6,779 nucleotides of DNA. It comes from a virus. Its lineage: Duplodnaviria; Heunggongvirae; Uroviricota; Caudoviricetes. The position numbers and the translations under genes were made by a program. Below the pieces are notes generated by a model that did not search any database, was not told where the DNA came from, and worked only from the letters and a program-made list of their open reading frames with translations. Shown here piece by piece: positions 1-6,779 of the stretch; the stretch's first letter is position 1; every line of letters starts with the position of its first letter. The stretch is taken from the IMG/VR virus record IMGVR_UViG_2693429713_000022, positions 1-6,779 of that record, one strand, 5' to 3'.

Positions 1-12
1 GGTTTGGGAGAA
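1..12. other. Inner half of a candidate Din-family crossover site (site A); core and outer arm would lie just upstream of the window
   Basis: GGTTTGGGAGAA is the exact reverse complement of the 12-bp arm TTCTCCCAAACC found in sites B and C. Only half the site is visible, so this is provisional. Confidence 0.45.
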
Positions 13-453
13 GCGGCAAAACGAAATGTGGGCAACGGGGAAAACCAAATCCCTGATATGTCTTTCTGGACGGTTACTGGTGGCAATGGAAATTTTGTGA
101 TTCGTCAACCTGACGGGCTAATCATTCAGATGGTTACTGTAAGTATAAGCGGTCCAGTGGCGATGAATGGAATGACTGATAATGCTTATGCCATTACAGG
201 TTCTAATAAGTCTTATATTGCCACAGCCACATTGCCCTTTGTATTTCCTAATAAGGTGCTGGGCGTTATCCCTCTGGTATCAACAACAGCTTATGGTGGT
301 GTATCCAGTAATATTACAGGTTCATACGCGACGGCGGTTTGTTCTTTTGCCGCTGTCAGGGGGAATAATACGATTGTGTTCAAAGTCGACAAACCACTGA
401 ATGCAGCCTTTCCTTCAGATACCAGCGTCTCAGCGTTAATCATTGGACGGTAA
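1..453 (+). CDS. Tail-fibre protein, C-terminal receptor-binding cassette (partial; 5' part of the gene lies upstream of the window); left copy of the inverted repeat
   Basis: Open frame from position 1 (GLGEAAKRNVG...ALIIGR) ending at TAA 451-453, followed 2 nt later by a Tfa-family gene, the usual tail-fibre/chaperone pairing. The same 149 aa are encoded on the minus strand at 2512-2958. Gly/Ser/Thr/Asn-rich composition typical of fibre distal domains. No start codon in the window. Confidence 0.8.
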   Translation, partial: GLGEAAKRNVGNGENQIPDMSFWTVTGGNGNFVIRQPDGLIIQMVTVSISGPVAMNGMTDNAYAITGSNKSYIATATLPFVFPNKVLGVIPLVSTTAYGGVSSNITGSYATAVCSFAAVRGNNTIVFKVDKPLNAAFPSDTSVSALIIGR

Positions 454-455
454 GA

Positions 456-899
456 ATGAACTCAGTATTCTTTTCACCCGCAAGTAAAAGTTTTTATCTG
501 CAAGAATTGTTTCCAGAATATGAGGATGCGGGAACGCTTCCTGATGATGTTATTGAAATTACCAGAGAAACATATGAGCAATTTCTTGGGCTGCATCCAG
601 AAGGGAAAGAAATTGGCGCTGACAGTTCAGGACGGCCAATATGGATTAATTCCCCGCCGCCTTCAAAAGAGGATGAGATGCTGGCGGCTGAAATGAAAAA
701 GATATCTTTGGTTTCAGAAGTCAATACCTACATCAATACCCATCAGTGGCCTGGCAAAGCTGCTATTGGTCGTCTGAAAGGTTACGAGCTGGAACAATAT
801 AATTTATGGCTGGATTATCTGGACGCACTGGAACTGGTTGATACCTCCAGTGCTCCAGATATTGAATGGCCTACGCCTCCGGTAGTTCAGGCCAGATGA
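456..899 (+). CDS. Tail-fibre assembly protein (Tfa family), 147 aa
   Basis: ATG at 456, 2 nt after the fibre stop. C-terminal motif [26 protein letters not shown] resembles the conserved Tfa/Mu-U-type C-terminus and is shared in pattern with the convergent Tfa gene ([28 protein letters not shown]). Its first 54 codons lie inside IR-L. Confidence 0.8.
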   Translation: MNSVFFSPASKSFYLQELFPEYEDAGTLPDDVIEITRETYEQFLGLHPEGKEIGADSSGRPIWINSPPPSKEDEMLAAEMKKISLVSEVNTYINTHQWPGKAAIGRLKGYELEQYNLWLDYLDALELVDTSSAPDIEWPTPPVVQAR

Positions 900-1476
900 C
901 ATCCGGCGCGGTGCTGGTATCTGTTGCAGTCACCGCGTCAATGTAATCCAGCACAGCGTTAAGCCGGGTTGTTTCTGCCTGCGTCAGCTTCCGCCCGGCC
1001 TGCAATTTCAGCTGAATCAGACTAATGGAAGCCATAGCAGCATCAATCAGTGACTGGCGCCGTACTTCTGCCGCGTCTACTGCGGCGTTATGCTGTGCCT
1101 CAGTATCGGTCACCCATTTCTCACCATCCCATTTATCGTATGACGTTAACGGGGCGATAGTGGTTGTATTTTCAGGGTAATCACCCGGAACTGTGATTTC
1201 TTTTGATTCTCCTGTTTCGGTGCTATAGACGATTTCACCGCGATGGTCTGGCACATATTCCCATGAGTTAAAATCTGCAGAACGGCAAATTGCATAACCA
1301 GCTTTATATGAGCCAGGAGCATCTAAACAGGAACATGCCGGGATACCAACACCCACAGCAAGATATTCAGTTGATGTGGAAATATATTCCCGTGTTTCAC
1401 CATCATAATTATAAACGGTAATGTCTCCGGCCTTTGTGGCGATGAGTTCATTATTTAATACAGCTTTACTTATCAT
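871..1476 (-). CDS. Tail-fibre assembly protein (Tfa family), 201 aa, partner of the 253-aa fibre gene
   Basis: Start ATG (minus strand) at 1474-1476 overlaps the TGA stop of the upstream fibre gene as ATGA (1473-1476), suggesting translational coupling. Conserved Tfa C-terminal motif. Its 3' end overlaps the convergent Tfa gene by 29 bp (871-899). Confidence 0.8.
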
Positions 1477-2234
1477 GCAGCCCTCACAATATAATTAAAG
1501 GCGATGTTACGGGAGCGGGTTTCAGATGCTGTGCGAACTGAGCGAGATGCGTCGAATGTCCAGTTATAAGCGCCATAACCCTCAATAATTTCGGCTTCCT
1601 TTAGACCTGTAGATAATACTTGCCCATGTTGACTAAATGGCCCTGAACTAAGTACGTCTCTAAAAAGCTGGGTACGCCCAAAAGAACCAACAATATTCTG
1701 AATTGCATCATTCTGTGCAGATAATAAGTTACGACCAGAGTCAATCCCGCGCCCATCATCCCAGCCACGAATAAATTCACCGCGTAAATCTGGTAATTTT
1801 AATGTTGGGTAAGCCTTTGCCAGATTTGGGTACTTTTCAGAAGAAAATACTGCTCCGTTACATTTTAGCCACCCCGTTGGCGGAGTGGCGGAAGGCCACG
1901 GAACAGGCACACCAACGGGTAATGCCGAACCTTCTCCCAAACCAAGGTTTTCGAGAGCCGTTTTCACCGTGCCATCAGATTTGATATCGCCAAACGGATT
2001 CTTGCGGCTTAACAGCAGCGCACGAAGCGCGGTAAGCAGCTGGTCATGCCGCCCCTTCTCCAGGCTGGCACCGGATGCCTCCACCACGCTGCAGAGTTCT
2101 TCCTGCAACATGTCAAAGTAGTCATCATCCAGATCGGTGGCAGGTGTGCCGGTCTGGGGGTTACCACGGGTAAAACCGTTCTTACCCGCGCCGAACTTAT
2201 CCTTCTGCGCGGTTTTCGTGTCTATACGATGCAT
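1473..2234 (-). CDS. Small tail-fibre protein, 253 aa, with N-terminal fibre-attachment-type motif and phage tail-collar-like domain
   Basis: GGAG ribosome-binding site (plus-strand CTCC 2241-2244) 6 nt upstream of ATG 2232-2234. N-terminus [21 protein letters not shown]...[20 protein letters not shown] resembles conserved tail-fibre N-termini of the Mu S / P2 H type. The segment [12 protein letters not shown]...YPNLAKAYP...[17 protein letters not shown] (about 1746-1901) matches the tail-collar signature as I remember it. Crossover site B lies inside the gene at codons about 93-101. Confidence 0.8.
1932..1957. other. Candidate Din-family (gix/hix/cix/pix-type) 26-bp crossover site B
   Basis: TTCTCCCAAACC-AA-GGTTTTCGAGAG: two 12-bp imperfect inverted arms (9 of 12 positions symmetric) around a 2-bp AA core with the AAACC/GGTTT inner motif. 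It matches the hixL sequence I recall (TTCTTGAAAACCAAGGTTTTTGATAA) at about 20 of 26 positions. It sits at the constant/variable junction of the fibre gene, encoding ...ENLGLGE... on the minus strand. Confidence 0.65.
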
Positions 2235-2257
2235 GGATTACTCCGGATATTTAAAAA

Positions 2258-2509
2258 TTACGTAGGTATGCGAAGGGCAGAGTTTGTTAAGCACACACTC
2301 GACAACGGTGTCGCCCCAGATACGCAGTGCGGAATCACAGGGATCACGCCAATTTCTTTCCCTTCTGGATGCAGCCCAAGAAATTGCTCATATGTTTCTC
2401 TGGTAATTTCAATAACATCATCAGGAAGCGTTCCCGCATCCTCATATTCTGGAAACAATTCTTGCAGATAAAAACTTTTACTTGCGGGTGAAAAGAATAC
2501 TGAGTTCAT
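2258..2509 (-). pseudogene. Truncated Tfa remnant: 54 N-terminal codons from IR-R fused to 29 unrelated codons
   Basis: The first 54 aa are identical to the Tfa gene at 456-617. After the inverted-repeat boundary (2347/2346) the frame continues into unrelated sequence ([29 protein letters not shown]) and stops at 2258-2260, 83 aa total versus 147 aa for the intact copy. Confidence 0.55.
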
Positions 2510-2964
2510 TCTTACCGTCCAATGATTAACGCTGAGACGCTGGTATCTGAAGGAAAGGCTGCATTCAGTGGTTTGTCGACTTTGAACACAATCGTATTAT
2601 TCCCCCTGACAGCGGCAAAAGAACAAACCGCCGTCGCGTATGAACCTGTAATATTACTGGATACACCACCATAAGCTGTTGTTGATACCAGAGGGATAAC
2701 GCCCAGCACCTTATTAGGAAATACAAAGGGCAATGTGGCTGTGGCAATATAAGACTTATTAGAACCTGTAATGGCATAAGCATTATCAGTCATTCCATTC
2801 ATCGCCACTGGACCGCTTATACTTACAGTAACCATCTGAATGATTAGCCCGTCAGGTTGACGAATCACAAAATTTCCATTGCCACCAGTAACCGTCCAGA
2901 AAGACATATCAGGGATTTGGTTTTCCCCGTTGCCCACATTTCGTTTTGCCGCTTCTCCCAAACC
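2347..2964. repeat. Inverted repeat, right copy (IR-R), partner of 1-618
   Basis: See IR-L. The outer end at 2964 is set by the window start (position 1 pairs with 2964) and coincides with the end of the 12-bp arm of crossover site C, so the repeat may end at the recombination site. Confidence 0.9.
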
Positions 2965-3006
2965 AACGTTTATGAAAATGCAGAAATAACGAGCAAATGG
3001 CATCAT
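2512..3006 (-). CDS. Tail-fibre C-terminal cassette, pin-proximal copy; apparently lacks an N-terminal constant part in this orientation (silent or fragment cassette)
   Basis: Encodes the same 149 aa as 1-453 on the minus strand. The ORF extends only 14 codons beyond crossover site C to an ATG at 3004-3006 (MMPFARYFCIFINV...) with no fibre-like N-terminal domain. This resembles the short fibre fragment gene next to pin in e14, as I recall it. Confidence 0.6.
   Translation of the reverse strand: MMPFARYFCIFINVGLGEAAKRNVGNGENQIPDMSFWTVTGGNGNFVIRQPDGLIIQMVTVSISGPVAMNGMTDNAYAITGSNKSYIATATLPFVFPNKVLGVIPLVSTTAYGGVSSNITGSYATAVCSFAAVRGNNTIVFKVDKPLNAAFPSDTSVSALIIGR
2953..2978. other. Candidate Din-family crossover site C, next to the invertase gene
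   Basis: TTCTCCCAAACC-AA-CGTTTATGAAAA: left arm and AA core identical to site B, right arm more degenerate. It lies 55 bp upstream of the invertase start, the position where gix/cix-type sites sit relative to gin/cin. On the minus strand it encodes ...INVGLGE... in the same frame as site B. Confidence 0.6.
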
Positions 3007-3032
3007 TCCTGCTTTTGTCAGGGAGATCTACC

Positions 3033-3587
3033 ATGCTTATTGGCTATGTACGTGTGTCAACAAATGACCAGAACACAGATCTACAACGTAATGCGCTGAA
3101 CTGTGCAGGATGCGAGCTGATTTTTGAAGACAAGATAAGCGGTACAAAGTCCGAAAGGCCGGGACTGAAAAAACTGCTCAGGACATTATCGGCAGGCGAT
3201 ACGCTGGTGGTCTGGAAACTGGACCGACTGGGGCGCAGTATGCGGCATCTTGTCGTGCTGGTGGAGGAGTTGCGCGAACGAGGCATCAACTTTCGTAGTC
3301 TGACGGATTCAATTGATACCAGTACCCCAATGGGGCGCTTTTTCTTTCATGTGATGGGGGCCCTGGCTGAAATGGAACGAGAACTGATTGTTGAACGAAC
3401 AAAAGCTGGACTGGAAGCTGCTCGCGCACAGGGACGAATTGGTGGACGTCGTCCCAAACTTACACCAGAACAATGGGCACAAGCCGGACGATTAATTGCA
3501 TCAGGAGTTCCGCGCCAGAAAGTTGCGATTATCTATGATGTTGGCGTATCGACTTTGTATCAGAGGTTTCCGGCAGGAGATAAATAA
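3033..3587 (+). CDS. pin: Serine DNA invertase of the Pin/Gin/Cin/Hin (Din) family, 184 aa
   Basis: N-terminus MLIGYVRVSTNDQNTDLQRNAL is the hallmark Din-invertase start, with the catalytic serine at residue 9 (codon 3057-3059). The rest is near-collinear with Gin/Cin as I remember them (GDTLVVWKLDRLGRSM, GRFFFHVMGALAEMERELI, and a C-terminal HTH region GVPRQKVAIIYDVGVSTLYQRF). GGGAG ribosome-binding site at 3021-3025, 7 nt before the ATG. The track ORF starts at 2997, but 3033 is the supported start. Family assignment is confident; the pin symbol is by context (e14-like neighbours), not proven orthology. Confidence 0.93.
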   Translation: MLIGYVRVSTNDQNTDLQRNALNCAGCELIFEDKISGTKSERPGLKKLLRTLSAGDTLVVWKLDRLGRSMRHLVVLVEELRERGINFRSLTDSIDTSTPMGRFFFHVMGALAEMERELIVERTKAGLEAARAQGRIGGRRPKLTPEQWAQAGRLIASGVPRQKVAIIYDVGVSTLYQRFPAGDK

Positions 3588-3785
3588 AGACACAGCTCGT
3601 CGAATTCAAGAACGTGTGAGCCAATCTCATGATGATTCATTATTTTCACATAGAGTCAATGACAAAAAACGGCTGCAAGGTAAACCACAACGATGGCTTT
3701 GTTAATTGATAGCGGTTTTGGTACTAAATGATACAAATTAAAATGAATATCCTAGTGAATTACAACAATTTCAGGAGGAAATAGT

Positions 3786-3998
3786 ATGCCAAGAAAAACG
3801 CTAGAAAATTTGGTAAATGTTGCACGTCAGACTCAGGAAATAGCGGATAAGAGAAGCCGTTTTTTCGGGTATCTTGAACAGCATGGCTTGAAGAGGAATG
3901 AGGATAGTGCTCACCTTTTTGCTATGCATTTACGGTTGCAACACAATGAAAGAGATAATCTTGTCCATGAACTGATGTCCGGATTACATCATAAATAG
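3786..3998 (+). CDS. Hypothetical small protein, 70 aa, basic and His-rich; function unknown
   Basis: Strong AGGAGG ribosome-binding site at 3773-3778, 7 nt before ATG 3786. AT-rich. Convergent with the two-gene operon. I recognise no family. Confidence 0.5.
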   Translation: MPRKTLENLVNVARQTQEIADKRSRFFGYLEQHGLKRNEDSAHLFAMHLRLQHNERDNLVHELMSGLHHK

Positions 3999-4032
3999 TG
4001 CATCATTCGAGCAAGAATATTATAAGACAATA

Positions 4033-4055
4033 AACCAGCCAAAAACTGGCTGGTT
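4033..4055. terminator. Candidate bidirectional intrinsic terminator between convergent genes
   Basis: Hairpin AACCAGCC(A)-loop-(T)GGCTGGTT with an 8-9 bp stem, flanked by T-rich sequence on the minus-strand side (TATTGTCTTATAAT) and a TTTTT run 10 nt away on the plus-strand side. Lies between the 70-aa gene stop (3998) and the 114-aa gene stop (4083). U tracts are imperfect. Confidence 0.5.
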
Positions 4056-4082
4056 GAACGTTAACTTTTTGAATTTAATCAA

Positions 4083-4427
4083 TTAACTTTGGTGTATGTC
4101 TTGGTAAGTCTCATCCGTCAGAGCCAATTTCATGCAAATATCATCGTTAAGACTGACAATATCTTCGATCAGTTTATTGATCTCGAAATCGTTAAGTTTT
4201 GATACTGTTGCTTGAACTCGCCCCTCATCGCCAGTGGCATCAAACTTAGTCAGTTCCTTACATAATTCATCGAACCTGCTTTGTAAGGCATTTGGAATAT
4301 CATCGGCTGTTTTAAGATGCCCAAGGCTAAAAACATACGAATTAATCAAGCGTTCTTGAATACTTCCATGGCCCGCAAGAGTAAGTACTGCAGTATGAAA
4401 TTTTTCATGTGCATACTTTAAGGACAT
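4083..4427 (-). CDS. Hypothetical protein, 114 aa, mildly acidic; second gene of the cargo operon
   Basis: GGAGA ribosome-binding site (plus-strand TCTCC 4434-4438) 6 nt before ATG 4425-4427. Lies 51 bp downstream of the 343-aa gene on the same strand. AT-rich. No recognisable motif. Confidence 0.6.
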   Translation of the reverse strand: MSLKYAHEKFHTAVLTLAGHGSIQERLINSYVFSLGHLKTADDIPNALQSRFDELCKELTKFDATGDEGRVQATVSKLNDFEINKLIEDIVSLNDDICMKLALTDETYQDIHQS

Positions 4428-4478
4428 ATCTGGTCTCCGTGACTTATAACCTCAACCGACATAAATGGGGTTAAGTGA

Positions 4479-5510
4479 TTATTCTGAAACAATAGTGTTG
4501 AACTGACCTATAGAAACAGCACCCTTTTCAATTACCTCTAAGTAACTGATTTTAATATGAGAGTTGTTTGACAAAGCGTCAACAATAGCTGTCAACTCAT
4601 CTTGGGTGATAACATCAGCTGAAGCTTTGATTGTGAAGCATTCGTCATTAGAGACCCTAACAACGTTAATATTAATATCCTGATTTGTTGGCCCTGTTCT
4701 GGTTACACCTTTGATGGAAAATATATCAGTTCGTTCTTTACGTTCTCTATCTACAGATTGTCGGCTGTTGTAGGTATTTAGGTCTTGTCGTGTTAGTTTC
4801 TCATTTCCTAAAGTCACGGTTTCGACAGTAGGATCAGCAGCTAATTGCTTCACTAAAGCACTTTTACCTGCTTGTCCGTGACTAGTAACTTTATCGCTAA
4901 TCGCTGATTTCCCATAGATTTTATAATCTAATGTTGCTTCTATGGCTTTGTTTATGCCATCGGATGTGGTTTTTGCAATTTCAACCTGCCGATCAGTTGC
5001 ATGTCTTTCTGTTACGGCATTTTCTGAAATGTAGTGATAACCACATGTGCTGGCCGCGCCAACCATTGTGATTATAACAAGCATTTTCTGCCAGCCGTTC
5101 AGTCCAGACATAGTATCTCGCAAAAAATCAGTTACTGCGTTGATGATCTTGTCAGTGGTGCCTTCCGCATCACTAGAACCTTCGCTAATTTTAAAATTTA
5201 TATCAAGTCGTTGCTTGTCTTCATTAGTCAAGCGTTGAAGATTCTGCGATCCGTATCGTATGGTTGCAAACGCCCGCTGTATCTCCTCGTTGAGCATTGA
5301 CATACCAAACAACATTGCTGATGTAATTGATGAATGATACCGCTCTCCTTTTACATTTATGTCTAAGGATGGCCAGCCTGCAAACTTTACGTTAGGGAAA
5401 ATAAACTCTTTAGAATCAAGCCCCTCTCGGGCTTTCATTTCTTCCAGAAAGTTTAGAAAATCATCTTCACTACGGATCAGAAAATCAATCGAATCCACAG
5501 TAGCTTCCAT
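4479..5510 (-). CDS. Hypothetical protein, 343 aa, with a central hydrophobic (possible membrane) segment; first gene of the cargo operon
   Basis: Long ORF in an AT-rich region. AAGGA ribosome-binding site (plus-strand TCCTT 5518-5522) 7 nt before ATG 5508-5510. Hydrophobic stretch GWQKMLVIITMVGAASTCGYHYI at about residues 139-161 (roughly 5028-5096). No catalytic motif I can name. Confidence 0.75.
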   Translation of the reverse strand: MEATVDSIDFLIRSEDDFLNFLEEMKAREGLDSKEFIFPNVKFAGWPSLDINVKGERYHSSITSAMLFGMSMLNEEIQRAFATIRYGSQNLQRLTNEDKQRLDINFKISEGSSDAEGTTDKIINAVTDFLRDTMSGLNGWQKMLVIITMVGAASTCGYHYISENAVTERHATDRQVEIAKTTSDGINKAIEATLDYKIYGKSAISDKVTSHGQAGKSALVKQLAADPTVETVTLGNEKLTRQDLNTYNSRQSVDRERKERTDIFSIKGVTRTGPTNQDININVVRVSNDECFTIKASADVITQDELTAIVDALSNNSHIKISYLEVIEKGAVSIGQFNTIVSE

Positions 5511-5560
5511 ATGAATATCCTTATTAAATTCTCATTCGGTTACTGTTTATTGTTGACTGA

Positions 5561-5589
5561 TCAATAAAAAAGCCCGCAATTTGCGGGCT
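5561..5589 (-). terminator. Rho-independent terminator on the minus strand, downstream of ssrA and directly upstream of the cargo operon
   Basis: Minus strand reads GCCCGCAA-ATT-TTGCGGGC (stem from 5571-5589) followed by TTTTTTATTGA (5570-5561). Confidence 0.65.
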
Positions 5590-5719
5590 TCTTTCACACT
5601 TGAGAGCCGCGGCTCCTTTGCGTATCCTTTTTTGTCTCCTCACCGTCTGGTCGGTGTCCTGCTGAGACTGCTAACTTCCTGTTTTTGTTGGTGTTGTCCT
5701 TACACCGTCCAATCATGAT

Positions 5720-6082
5720 TGGTGGAGCTGGCGGGAGTTGAACCCGCGTCCGAAATTCCTACATCCTCGGTACTACATGCTTAGTCAGTCTTTACATTCG
5801 CTTGCCAGCTGCGGACGGACACGCCACTAACAAACTAGCCTGATTAAGTTTTAACGCTTCAACCCCAGGCAGGGCTTCCACGCGATCTCTTTTGGGTTTG
5901 ACCTCTCTTGATCCCCGTCCTAAGAGCGGAGGCTAGGGAGAGAGGGCTCTAAGCAGGTTATTAAGCTGCTAAAGCGTAGTTTTCGTCGTTTGCGACTATT
6001 TTTTGCGGCTTTTTACGAGGCCAACCGCCCCTCGGCATGCACCTTGGGTTTCGCAAATCCCGTCGAATCCAGAATCAGCCCC
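5720..6082 (-). ncRNA. ssrA: tmRNA (SsrA), 363 nt
   Basis: Reverse complement of 6059-6082 is GGGGCTGATTCTGGATTCGACGGG (tmRNA 5' end) and of 5720-5760 ends ...GGGTTCAACTCCCGCCAGCTCCACCA (tRNA-like 3' end with CCA). The tag reading frame GCAAACGACGAAAACTACGCTTTAGCAGCTTAA (ANDENYALAA-stop) is the reverse complement of 5961-5993. Matches the E. coli-type tmRNA as I remember it along its length. Confidence 0.95.
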
Positions 6083-6096
6083 AATGTGTAAAGGTA

Positions 6097-6102
6097 AGTA
6101 TA
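6097..6102 (-). promoter_or_regulatory. Possible -10 element (TATACT) of the ssrA promoter
   Basis: TATACT on the minus strand about 14 nt upstream of the mature tmRNA 5' end, consistent with a short processed leader. I found no convincing -35, so this is tentative. Confidence 0.3.
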
Positions 6103-6296
6103 CCAGATTTATGAGCGCCATGACCAGCCTCAATGGCGTTATCGTTAAAGATTTAGCACCCATGTAGCCTGATTTTTATTCGATTAAGCAATGGGATGGC
6201 AACATTTGTGTCGGATGTGATAGCCAATAAGATGTTGATTCGCGCCGCCGGAGAGGGAGGCGCGGTGAGGAACTGGTCAATAATTGGAGTGCAGGT

Positions 6297-6779
6297 TTAA
6301 CGGTGGGCGTTTTTCATGATACGTGCTTTATCCACCTGCCATTCGCGTTCTTTGATATCTGAACGTTTATCGTGCTGTTTTTTACCTTTGGCGACGCCGA
6401 TTTTCACTTTGCACCAGGCATTTTTCCAGTACAGGGAGAGCGCCACTACGGTATAGCCTTCTCGATTGACGCGACCGTACAATGAGTCCAGTTCGCGCTG
6501 GTTGAGAAGTAACTTGCGGGTACGGGTAGGATCGCACACCACATGCGTGGAGGCCACGGCCATTGGCGTGATGTTAGCGCCAAACAGAAATGCCTCTCCG
6601 TCACGCAGAAGGACGTAGCTGTCGCTGATATTGGCTTTTCCTGCGCGCAGGGATTTAACCTCCCAGCCTTGCAGGGCAAGTCCCGCTTCGAACTCTTCTT
6701 CGATAAAGTATTCGTGACGGGCGCGCTTGTTAAGCGCGATGGTCGCTGAACCAGGTTTATGTGCTTTTTTCTTCGTCAT
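6297..6779 (-). CDS. smpB: SsrA-binding protein SmpB, 160 aa
   Basis: Full-length [75 protein letters not shown]... with the start codon at the last three bases of the window (6777-6779). Directly upstream of ssrA on the same strand, the canonical smpB-ssrA arrangement. Confidence 0.95.

Follow-up and report, generated by a model that had tools for sequence, protein, structure and literature searches.

The window, by which we mean the whole 6,779-nt stretch of viral DNA that was analysed here, is very probably the ssrA-proximal (attL) end of a temperate phage of the ΦNP/LLS type, or of a remnant of such a phage, in which a cargo end that lies at ssrA is the normal outcome of integration. This assignment rests on the attL arm, on the phage genes that are contiguous with it and on the relatives of the window, because the window itself contains neither an integrase gene nor a second att site. 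A preliminary description of this DNA had pointed out that the polarity runs against the usual pattern, and in this it was right: integrase genes are often adjacent to the tRNA gene (PMC2704930), and among integrase-tRNA neighbours the arrangements in which the tRNA gene comes before the integrase dominate, with irregular orientations also having been noted (PMC2951348). However, the view that the polarity is anomalous did not hold, as it proved to be the regular geometry of a known phage group, being found in LLS, ΦNP, the EC1515 prophage, 18 of 19 loci that could be assessed and viral contigs. The “reversed” polarity is real but ordinary; the element is of a known kind and implies no new biology.

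The host part of the window lies on its minus strand and consists of the core gene smpB (6297-6779; a 160-aa ORF that is named smpB in identical genomes and whose start codon coincides with the end of the window), a predicted sigma-70-like promoter that was found using a consensus scan (6097-6126, minus strand; TGGTCA and TATACT at a spacing of 18 with an extended -10 TG) and the intact tmRNA gene ssrA (5720-6082, minus strand), which is the attL-side target. ARAGORN recognised the latter with the tag ANDENYALAA, and it matched the Rfam tmRNA family RF00023 with 295.8 bits over model positions 1-374 of 374. Behind ssrA and on the same strand there is a phage-type 3' trailer that would form one attP arm and that was delimited by its alignment to LLS, ΦNP and EC1515 (5560-5718; “arm A”). 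It comprises four small hairpins followed by a rho-independent terminator with its stem at 5572-5588 and its T-run at 5566-5571 (hairpin and T-run together ~5566-5594); a simple terminator scan missed this minus-strand terminator, which folding shows. From there, the order is ORF343 (4479-5510) and ORF114 (4083-4427), which are both co-oriented with ssrA on the minus strand and immediately behind its terminator, then ORF70 (3786-3998, plus strand), a pin-type serine DNA invertase (3033-3587, plus strand; Resolvase domain at 1.5e-51 and HTH_7, pinE in the annotation of the relatives), the tail-fibre and assembly genes and the 3' end of ymfQ. The invertible tail-fibre region (1-3006, no single strand), which was assigned from the annotation of genomes that are 99.98-100% identical, includes tail-fibre C-terminal segments, two tail-fibre assembly genes, a constant N-terminal part and the last ~110 nt of ymfQ, with candidate invertase crossover sites at 1931-1950 and 2952-2971. 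Late genes for the tail fibre, its assembly and the baseplate protein YmfQ are contiguous with the attL arm of the window, and the polarity runs from the cargo to the tail fibre. The earlier reading of an intact smpB-ssrA pair that is followed by a terminator, cargo, an invertase and tail fibres was borne out by ARAGORN, Rfam, folding, Pfam and the annotation of the relatives. So was its observation that the window has no integrase and no second ssrA 3' end: there was no integrase among the ORFs of the window according to the ORF list and Pfam domains, and the last 25 nt of ssrA were found only once in the window when up to three mismatches were allowed.

The three cargo ORFs had no match in Pfam or PADLOC. 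ORF343 matched phrog_6191, a family of unknown function, at 6.8e-38, while ORF114, which is annotated as hypothetical, and ORF70, which is conserved in EC1515 and NWU_3, had no match in PHROGs. ORF343 and ORF114 are rare, occurring in 46 of the 5,426 complete E. coli genomes, with ORF343 always in a single copy.

The boundary of the element had been described as not visible, but it can be placed at a 32-nt identity block (5719-5750, minus strand; GACGCGGGTTCAACTCCCGCCAGCTCCACCAA) that is repeated perfectly at both ends of the EC1515 prophage and that holds the crossover region. This block spans the T stem-loop GCGGG-TTCAACT-CCCGC (~5731-5747) and the 3' acceptor strand with its CCA. The published 25-bp att site of ΦNP corresponds to positions 5720-5744, inside the block, and the 25-nt core of the block is also repeated in NWU_3; GGTTCAACTCCCGCCAGCTCCACCA is the repeat whose second copy beyond int would mark a full prophage. 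The 5' part of the ssrA gene in the window would be host DNA, while the part that is 3' of the crossover, somewhere in 5719-5750, would have come from the attP of the phage. Strand exchange may take place at the T-loop, where the stem GCGGG/CCCGC would give inverted core-type sites around a 7-nt loop; we favour this position because of the symmetry of the sequence and because of what a 2002 work by Williams on tRNA sublocations (NAR 30:866) is said to have reported.

Two free temperate phages have this geometry. In both Escherichia phage LLS (PQ299149) and Citrobacter/Escherichia phage ΦNP (OR565852), attP lies beside int, and the direction of its ssrA-like segment is away from int, to the side of the cargo and the tail fibres. 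The premise of the preliminary description that attP is adjacent to int therefore holds, and the difference lies in the direction of the ssrA fragment of attP. The gene order of LLS is tail fibres, Fin invertase, cargo, the trailer with an ssrA 3' pseudogene (which corresponds to the minus strand of the window), gp31, int and xis; in its record, the matching stretch bears the annotation of attP and a tmRNA pseudogene, and the cargo side includes two tail-fibre genes that are opposed to each other. The record of ΦNP runs from a 25-bp ssrA end and the trailer through the cargo (ddi, hicAB and an acetyltransferase gene), the tail-fibre and other virion genes to xis, int and an ATPase gene. Window positions 5563-5758, which comprise the last 39 nt of ssrA and the trailer, are 90% identical to the attP flank of LLS and 87% identical to ΦNP. 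That ΦNP integrates into the terminal 25 bp of ssrA in E. coli K-12 has been verified by experiment (PMC6456863, PMC3072379), as has its 25-bp attP/attB (PMC6456863); the attP of LLS was deduced (PMC12315714). For the element in the window, integration and excision are presumed.

Both phages differ from the window in some respects. ΦNP, which is an ssrA-integrating temperate myovirus, shares with it the target, the type of trailer and the polarity from the core and trailer through the cargo to the tail fibre, but it differs in its cargo genes, has no annotated invertase and possesses an int, which the window does not. LLS, which is lambdoid, resembles the window in that its attP ssrA pseudogene and trailer point to the cargo, the Fin invertase and the inverted tail fibres, with int on the opposite side, whereas its cargo genes are different, its invertase is only ~74% identical at the DNA level and its tail proteins are lambda-like with side tail fibres (PMC12315714).

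The phages of the ΦNP/LLS type are lambdoid phages, some of them with contractile tails, whose tyrosine integrase with an Arm-DNA-bind_2 N-terminal domain targets the 3' end of ssrA. The free phage is ordered as int, zero to two accessory genes, the ssrA 3' copy, a trailer of ~155 nt with its terminator, the cargo, the invertase and the tail fibres, and the ssrA-like segment in attP has the same direction as int and reads away from it. We propose that recombination in the common 25-32 nt would connect the body of the host ssrA with a 3' end that the phage supplies; this would bring the trailer, terminator, cargo, invertase and tail fibres to ssrA and leave int at the opposite end, some 30-40 kb off, beside the displaced host 3' fragment. 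Because the ssrA segment of attP reads away from int, a cargo and tail-fibre end at the intact ssrA would be the designed outcome with no rearrangement needed. The organisation of attP in this type can be likened to that in lambda, in which, according to textbook knowledge, int is transcribed towards the adjacent attP, beyond which accessory (b-region-like) DNA lies beside the tail-fibre genes. The integration site of lambda is between gal and bio, where there is no RNA gene and no gene restoration.

Prophages that have kept both of their ends have the expected arrangement. In E. coli EC1515, the prophage is full-length (~39 kb) and its ssrA-proximal 3.8 kb are 99.3% identical to window positions 2952-6779. 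The order there is smpB, ssrA, trailer, ORF343, ORF114, ORF70, pinE, tail fibres, ymfQ, baseplate, sheath, head, terminase, lysis, Q, regulators and int. Int is followed by two AbiL-like genes, after which the ssrA 3' end recurs as an exact second copy and is succeeded by a CP4-57-like island; between this distal repeat and the IntA-type integrase of the island there is only a different trailer (“arm B”). E. coli NWU_3 has both prophage ends and the ssrA repeat in the same layout as EC1515, and its annotation suggests an internal deletion. A distal tyrosine integrase is present in both of these genomes, which have the proximal end of the window; that of EC1515 has the Arm-DNA-bind_2 and Phage_integrase domains and is 86% identical to the Int of LLS and 92% to that of ΦNP. 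The int gene and the att repeat are located ~31 and 39 kb away in the relatives that keep both ends and explain the orientation. This is in essence the conventional arrangement outside the window that the preliminary description had named as speaking against its own reading.

The interval between int and the distal att contains variable accessory genes (locus L008, 8890-10841; L034, 17069-19781; L003, 6216-7031). It holds the AbiL-like pair in EC1515 (AbiLi at 4e-101 and AbiLii at 5e-29) and an AAA ATPase and a Dam-type methylase gene in NWU_3, and cargo is therefore present at both ends of the prophage.

The same geometry was found in a family-wide survey. Homologues of the Int that were 72-89% identical were present in 21 species of Enterobacterales. 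At 18 of the 19 assessable loci, int was followed on the same strand, at a distance of 60-1,500 nt, by an ssrA 3' fragment, and no intact tmRNA gene lay within 10 kb. The sole exception, in which an N-terminally truncated int lies 1.1 kb from an intact ssrA with an arm A-type trailer, is a collapsed remnant. Among 80 IMG/VR contigs with the trailer motif, 27 had an intact tmRNA gene directly upstream, i.e., they were prophage calls that included attL, while five had Int directly upstream in the attP state (int, core, trailer). Homologues of pin, tfa or ymfQ were found downstream of the trailer in 32 of these contigs; pin and ymfQ, where found, were on the strand opposite to ssrA, as they are in the window. 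Within E. coli, an Int of the ΦNP/LLS type is present in 396 of the 5,426 complete genomes. The geometry is regular for the Int/attP module, whatever virion module is attached to it. It was also observed that in most of the 19 species (L012-L032) the int-side fragment is followed by a CP4-57-type trailer and then usually by the start of an IntA-like gene, and tandem arrays of two types of ssrA-targeting elements are therefore the rule across Enterobacterales.

A comparison with two other elements separates the integration module from the rest of the phage. The late-end module of the cryptic K-12 prophage e14, which consists of ymfQ, the stf/tfa invertible segment, pinE and a terminal cargo gene, is like that of the window. 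Nevertheless, e14 targets icd via IntE, its int side (ymfD-ymfE-lit-intE) adjoins the restored icd and its pinE-mcrA end adjoins the displaced icdC. In MG1655, the full order is icd, ymfD, ymfE, lit, intE ... ymfQ, stfP, tfaP, tfaE, stfE', pinE, mcrA, icdC. The contrast that was drawn earlier between the window and e14, in which the pin/cargo end is far from the restored icd, was confirmed; the two have the tail-fibre module in common but not the integration module. The CP4-57/IntA (P4-like) islands, conversely, share the ssrA target with the window and often stand in tandem with a phage of the ΦNP/LLS type. Unlike the window, they have the conventional geometry, in which the ssrA 3' end is followed by arm B and at once by the integrase. 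This feature, an integrase with an Arm-DNA-bind_3 domain behind the trailer AAATTCTCCATCGG..., is absent from the window, which has the other trailer. IntA and the Int of LLS share only 17% identity (PMC12315714).

Among the three explanations that the preliminary description had offered, a differing integration geometry is the primary cause. The loss of the integrase part did occur in the nearest relatives, and a composite or tandem structure applies to the locus but not to the polarity.

If a conventional prophage with int at ssrA had lost its int-proximal part, the deletion would have brought internal or late genes to ssrA, and the nearest relatives do lend this some colour, as they are short remnants that lack an integrase and whose break is occupied by an IS3-family element. 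Strain 602687 (locus L001) matches the window at 99.98-100% identity, and CD45 (L002) does so at ~99.9%. In 602687, the IS3-family element (L001, 16573-17821) lies between a ypjA that is cut at nt 436 and a ymfQ that is cut at nt 22, and the baseplate genes through to int and the distal att copy are gone; no integrase and no second ssrA 3' copy were found in the 20 kb that flank the match on each side (a 44-kb locus). The annotated gene order of CD45 is the same as that of 602687, with no annotated integrase, and AR24.2b has decayed further, with a truncated pin joined to the tail fibre of another prophage. The nearest relatives are a remnant of ~6 kb that has no integrase or repeat because of an IS3-linked deletion of the int side, in which one IS3-family element replaced the int side, the att repeat and part of ypjA. 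However, this deletion is on the ymfQ side and not between ssrA and the cargo. Moreover, the two-ended prophages have the same ssrA-trailer-cargo junction with int at the far end, and the attP of free LLS already has the trailer-cargo order. We therefore regard such a loss as a very unlikely source of the polarity. The geometry of the ΦNP/LLS type accounts for it, and the window is consistent with being either only the proximal end of such a phage or a remnant.

It is just as improbable that the polarity arose from a tandem or composite array in which the genes next to ssrA came from an element other than the one that supplied the att site. The locus is certainly layered: K-12-type remnants (ypjA-pinH'-ypjBC) lie beyond the IS3 element, and in EC1515, NWU_3 and most of the other species a CP4-57-like IntA island forms a tandem with the phage. 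Yet in EC1515 and NWU_3 the unit beside ssrA has an att copy at each end and by itself already shows this polarity, the run from the trailer through the cargo and pin to the tail fibres is unbroken in the 46 genomes, and the polarity is seen in many viral contigs. The layering also extends to K-12. At the attR of CP4-57, a degenerate copy of the ssrA 3' end is followed by an arm A-type trailer (88-91% identical), which is flanked by ypjF and ypjA, and the pinH' pseudogene, which lies between ypjA and ypjB, shares 85-87% identity with window positions 3156-3296 and has the same orientation (L009, 9852-9992; L001, 15570-15710). These similarities suggest that the K-12 stretch trailer-ypjA-pinH'-ypjBC may be an older remnant of the same kind of phage with the same polarity.

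That the cargo might be ordinary chromosomal DNA downstream of ssrA with no mobile-element boundary is hardly credible: arm A-type trailers do occur directly after ssrA in prophage-free strains (L011, with ypjA only; L010, followed by glaH) and in about half of the complete E. coli genomes (ssrA is joined directly to one in 2,644 of 5,426), but ORF343 and ORF114 are confined to the 46 genomes and are contiguous with the pin, tail-fibre and ymfQ genes, while the trailer of the window, with one mismatch to that of EC1515 in the aligned stretch, travels with the prophage, at whose far end there is a different trailer. This alternative is contradicted for the cargo and everything beyond it and bears only on the ultimate origin of the trailer. 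The trailer alone is no proof of a recent phage origin, as it could be native sequence that was copied by phages or the scar of older integrations. Its ultimate origin leaves the explanation through ΦNP/LLS-type integration unaffected because the window-type trailer travels with the EC1515 prophage.

The geometry calls for caution in annotation. Finders and readers that expect a tRNA or tmRNA gene to be followed by an integrase will misjudge a common class of elements in which it is the accessory and tail-fibre genes that adjoin the intact gene, with int at the far end by the displaced fragment. In about half of the complete E. coli genomes, it is the arm A-type trailer that directly follows ssrA, and there is no integrase-type trailer at that place. 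A simple reading also becomes available for the K-12 region beyond CP4-57, which, with its displaced trailer, ypjA and pinH', has the look of an older remnant.

Arm A itself would serve as an attP arm and, in lysogens, as a replacement 3' trailer and terminator for ssrA. It is much better conserved among the phages than the int-side arm, and all of the contexts that were compared diverge just past its T-run. Its predicted fold has -50.9 kcal/mol with z = -3.7. The viral contigs (L035-L114) contained 58 distinct variants with compensatory changes; in a test that used a hand-specified trailer structure, hairpins 1 and 3 had 60 double-change cells compared to 24 +/- 4 after shuffling, and none of the 500 shuffles reached as high a value. 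The consensus that RNAalifold produced for 40 trailer variants was unconvincing. Additionally, arm A has seven GGA motifs in ~115 nt, some of them in hairpin loops, and GGAC/AGAC repeats with a spacing of ~10 nt. It could be protein-binding DNA, i.e., an attP arm, or a structured RNA. An Rfam search of positions 5400-5800 with permissive thresholds returned only the tmRNA and weak terminator-driven or leader-like matches, and arm A fell in no family. A match to PrrB/RsmZ in this interval was rejected (19 bits, E = 0.026, compared to a gathering score of 44). In the int-side arms, a search for shared motifs as arm-type Int sites showed that (G/A)TACG(C/T)-like motifs recur, for which we make no claim of Int sites.

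We consider it rather doubtful, if conceivable, that arm A is more than filler or a plain attP arm, i.e., a conserved structured element that has its own function. Such an element may be a 3'-processing or termination signal for the tmRNA precursor in lysogens. Other candidates are a GGA-rich RNA that binds protein and a lambda-sib-like element that would act on int transcripts, but only as long as the phage is unintegrated and int reads into the element. ORF343 and ORF114 may, speculatively, receive read-through from ssrA. If true, a function of arm A, or read-through from the very strong ssrA promoter into the cargo genes that have the same orientation, would explain in terms of selection why the ssrA fragment faces away from int.

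The tail-fibre part of the window has a peculiarity of its own. The window equals the reverse complement of 602687 (L001, 18276-20622) joined to L001, 20001-24437, which creates a perfect 618-nt inverted duplication (window 1-618 and 2347-2964) with the junction at 2344-2347. This junction leads from the inside of ymfQ to the inside of a tail-fibre assembly gene, is not at the invertase crossover sites and was found in none of the 5,426 complete E. coli genomes; the duplication probably reflects an artefact, either of assembly or from a chimera, or else a private rearrangement. We rejected misassembly as the cause of the polarity at ssrA, since the anomalous join lies at 2344-2347 and the 4.4 kb that adjoin ssrA are colinear with 602687 (99.98%).

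A second anomaly concerns the RefSeq record NZ_CP148395.1 of L154, which is described as a circular plasmid of 2,637 bp and which corresponds to window positions ~2967-5603, containing pinE and the three cargo ORFs only. Its ends are at an invertase crossover site and inside the palindrome of the trailer, and this “plasmid” is most likely an assembly artefact at repeats.
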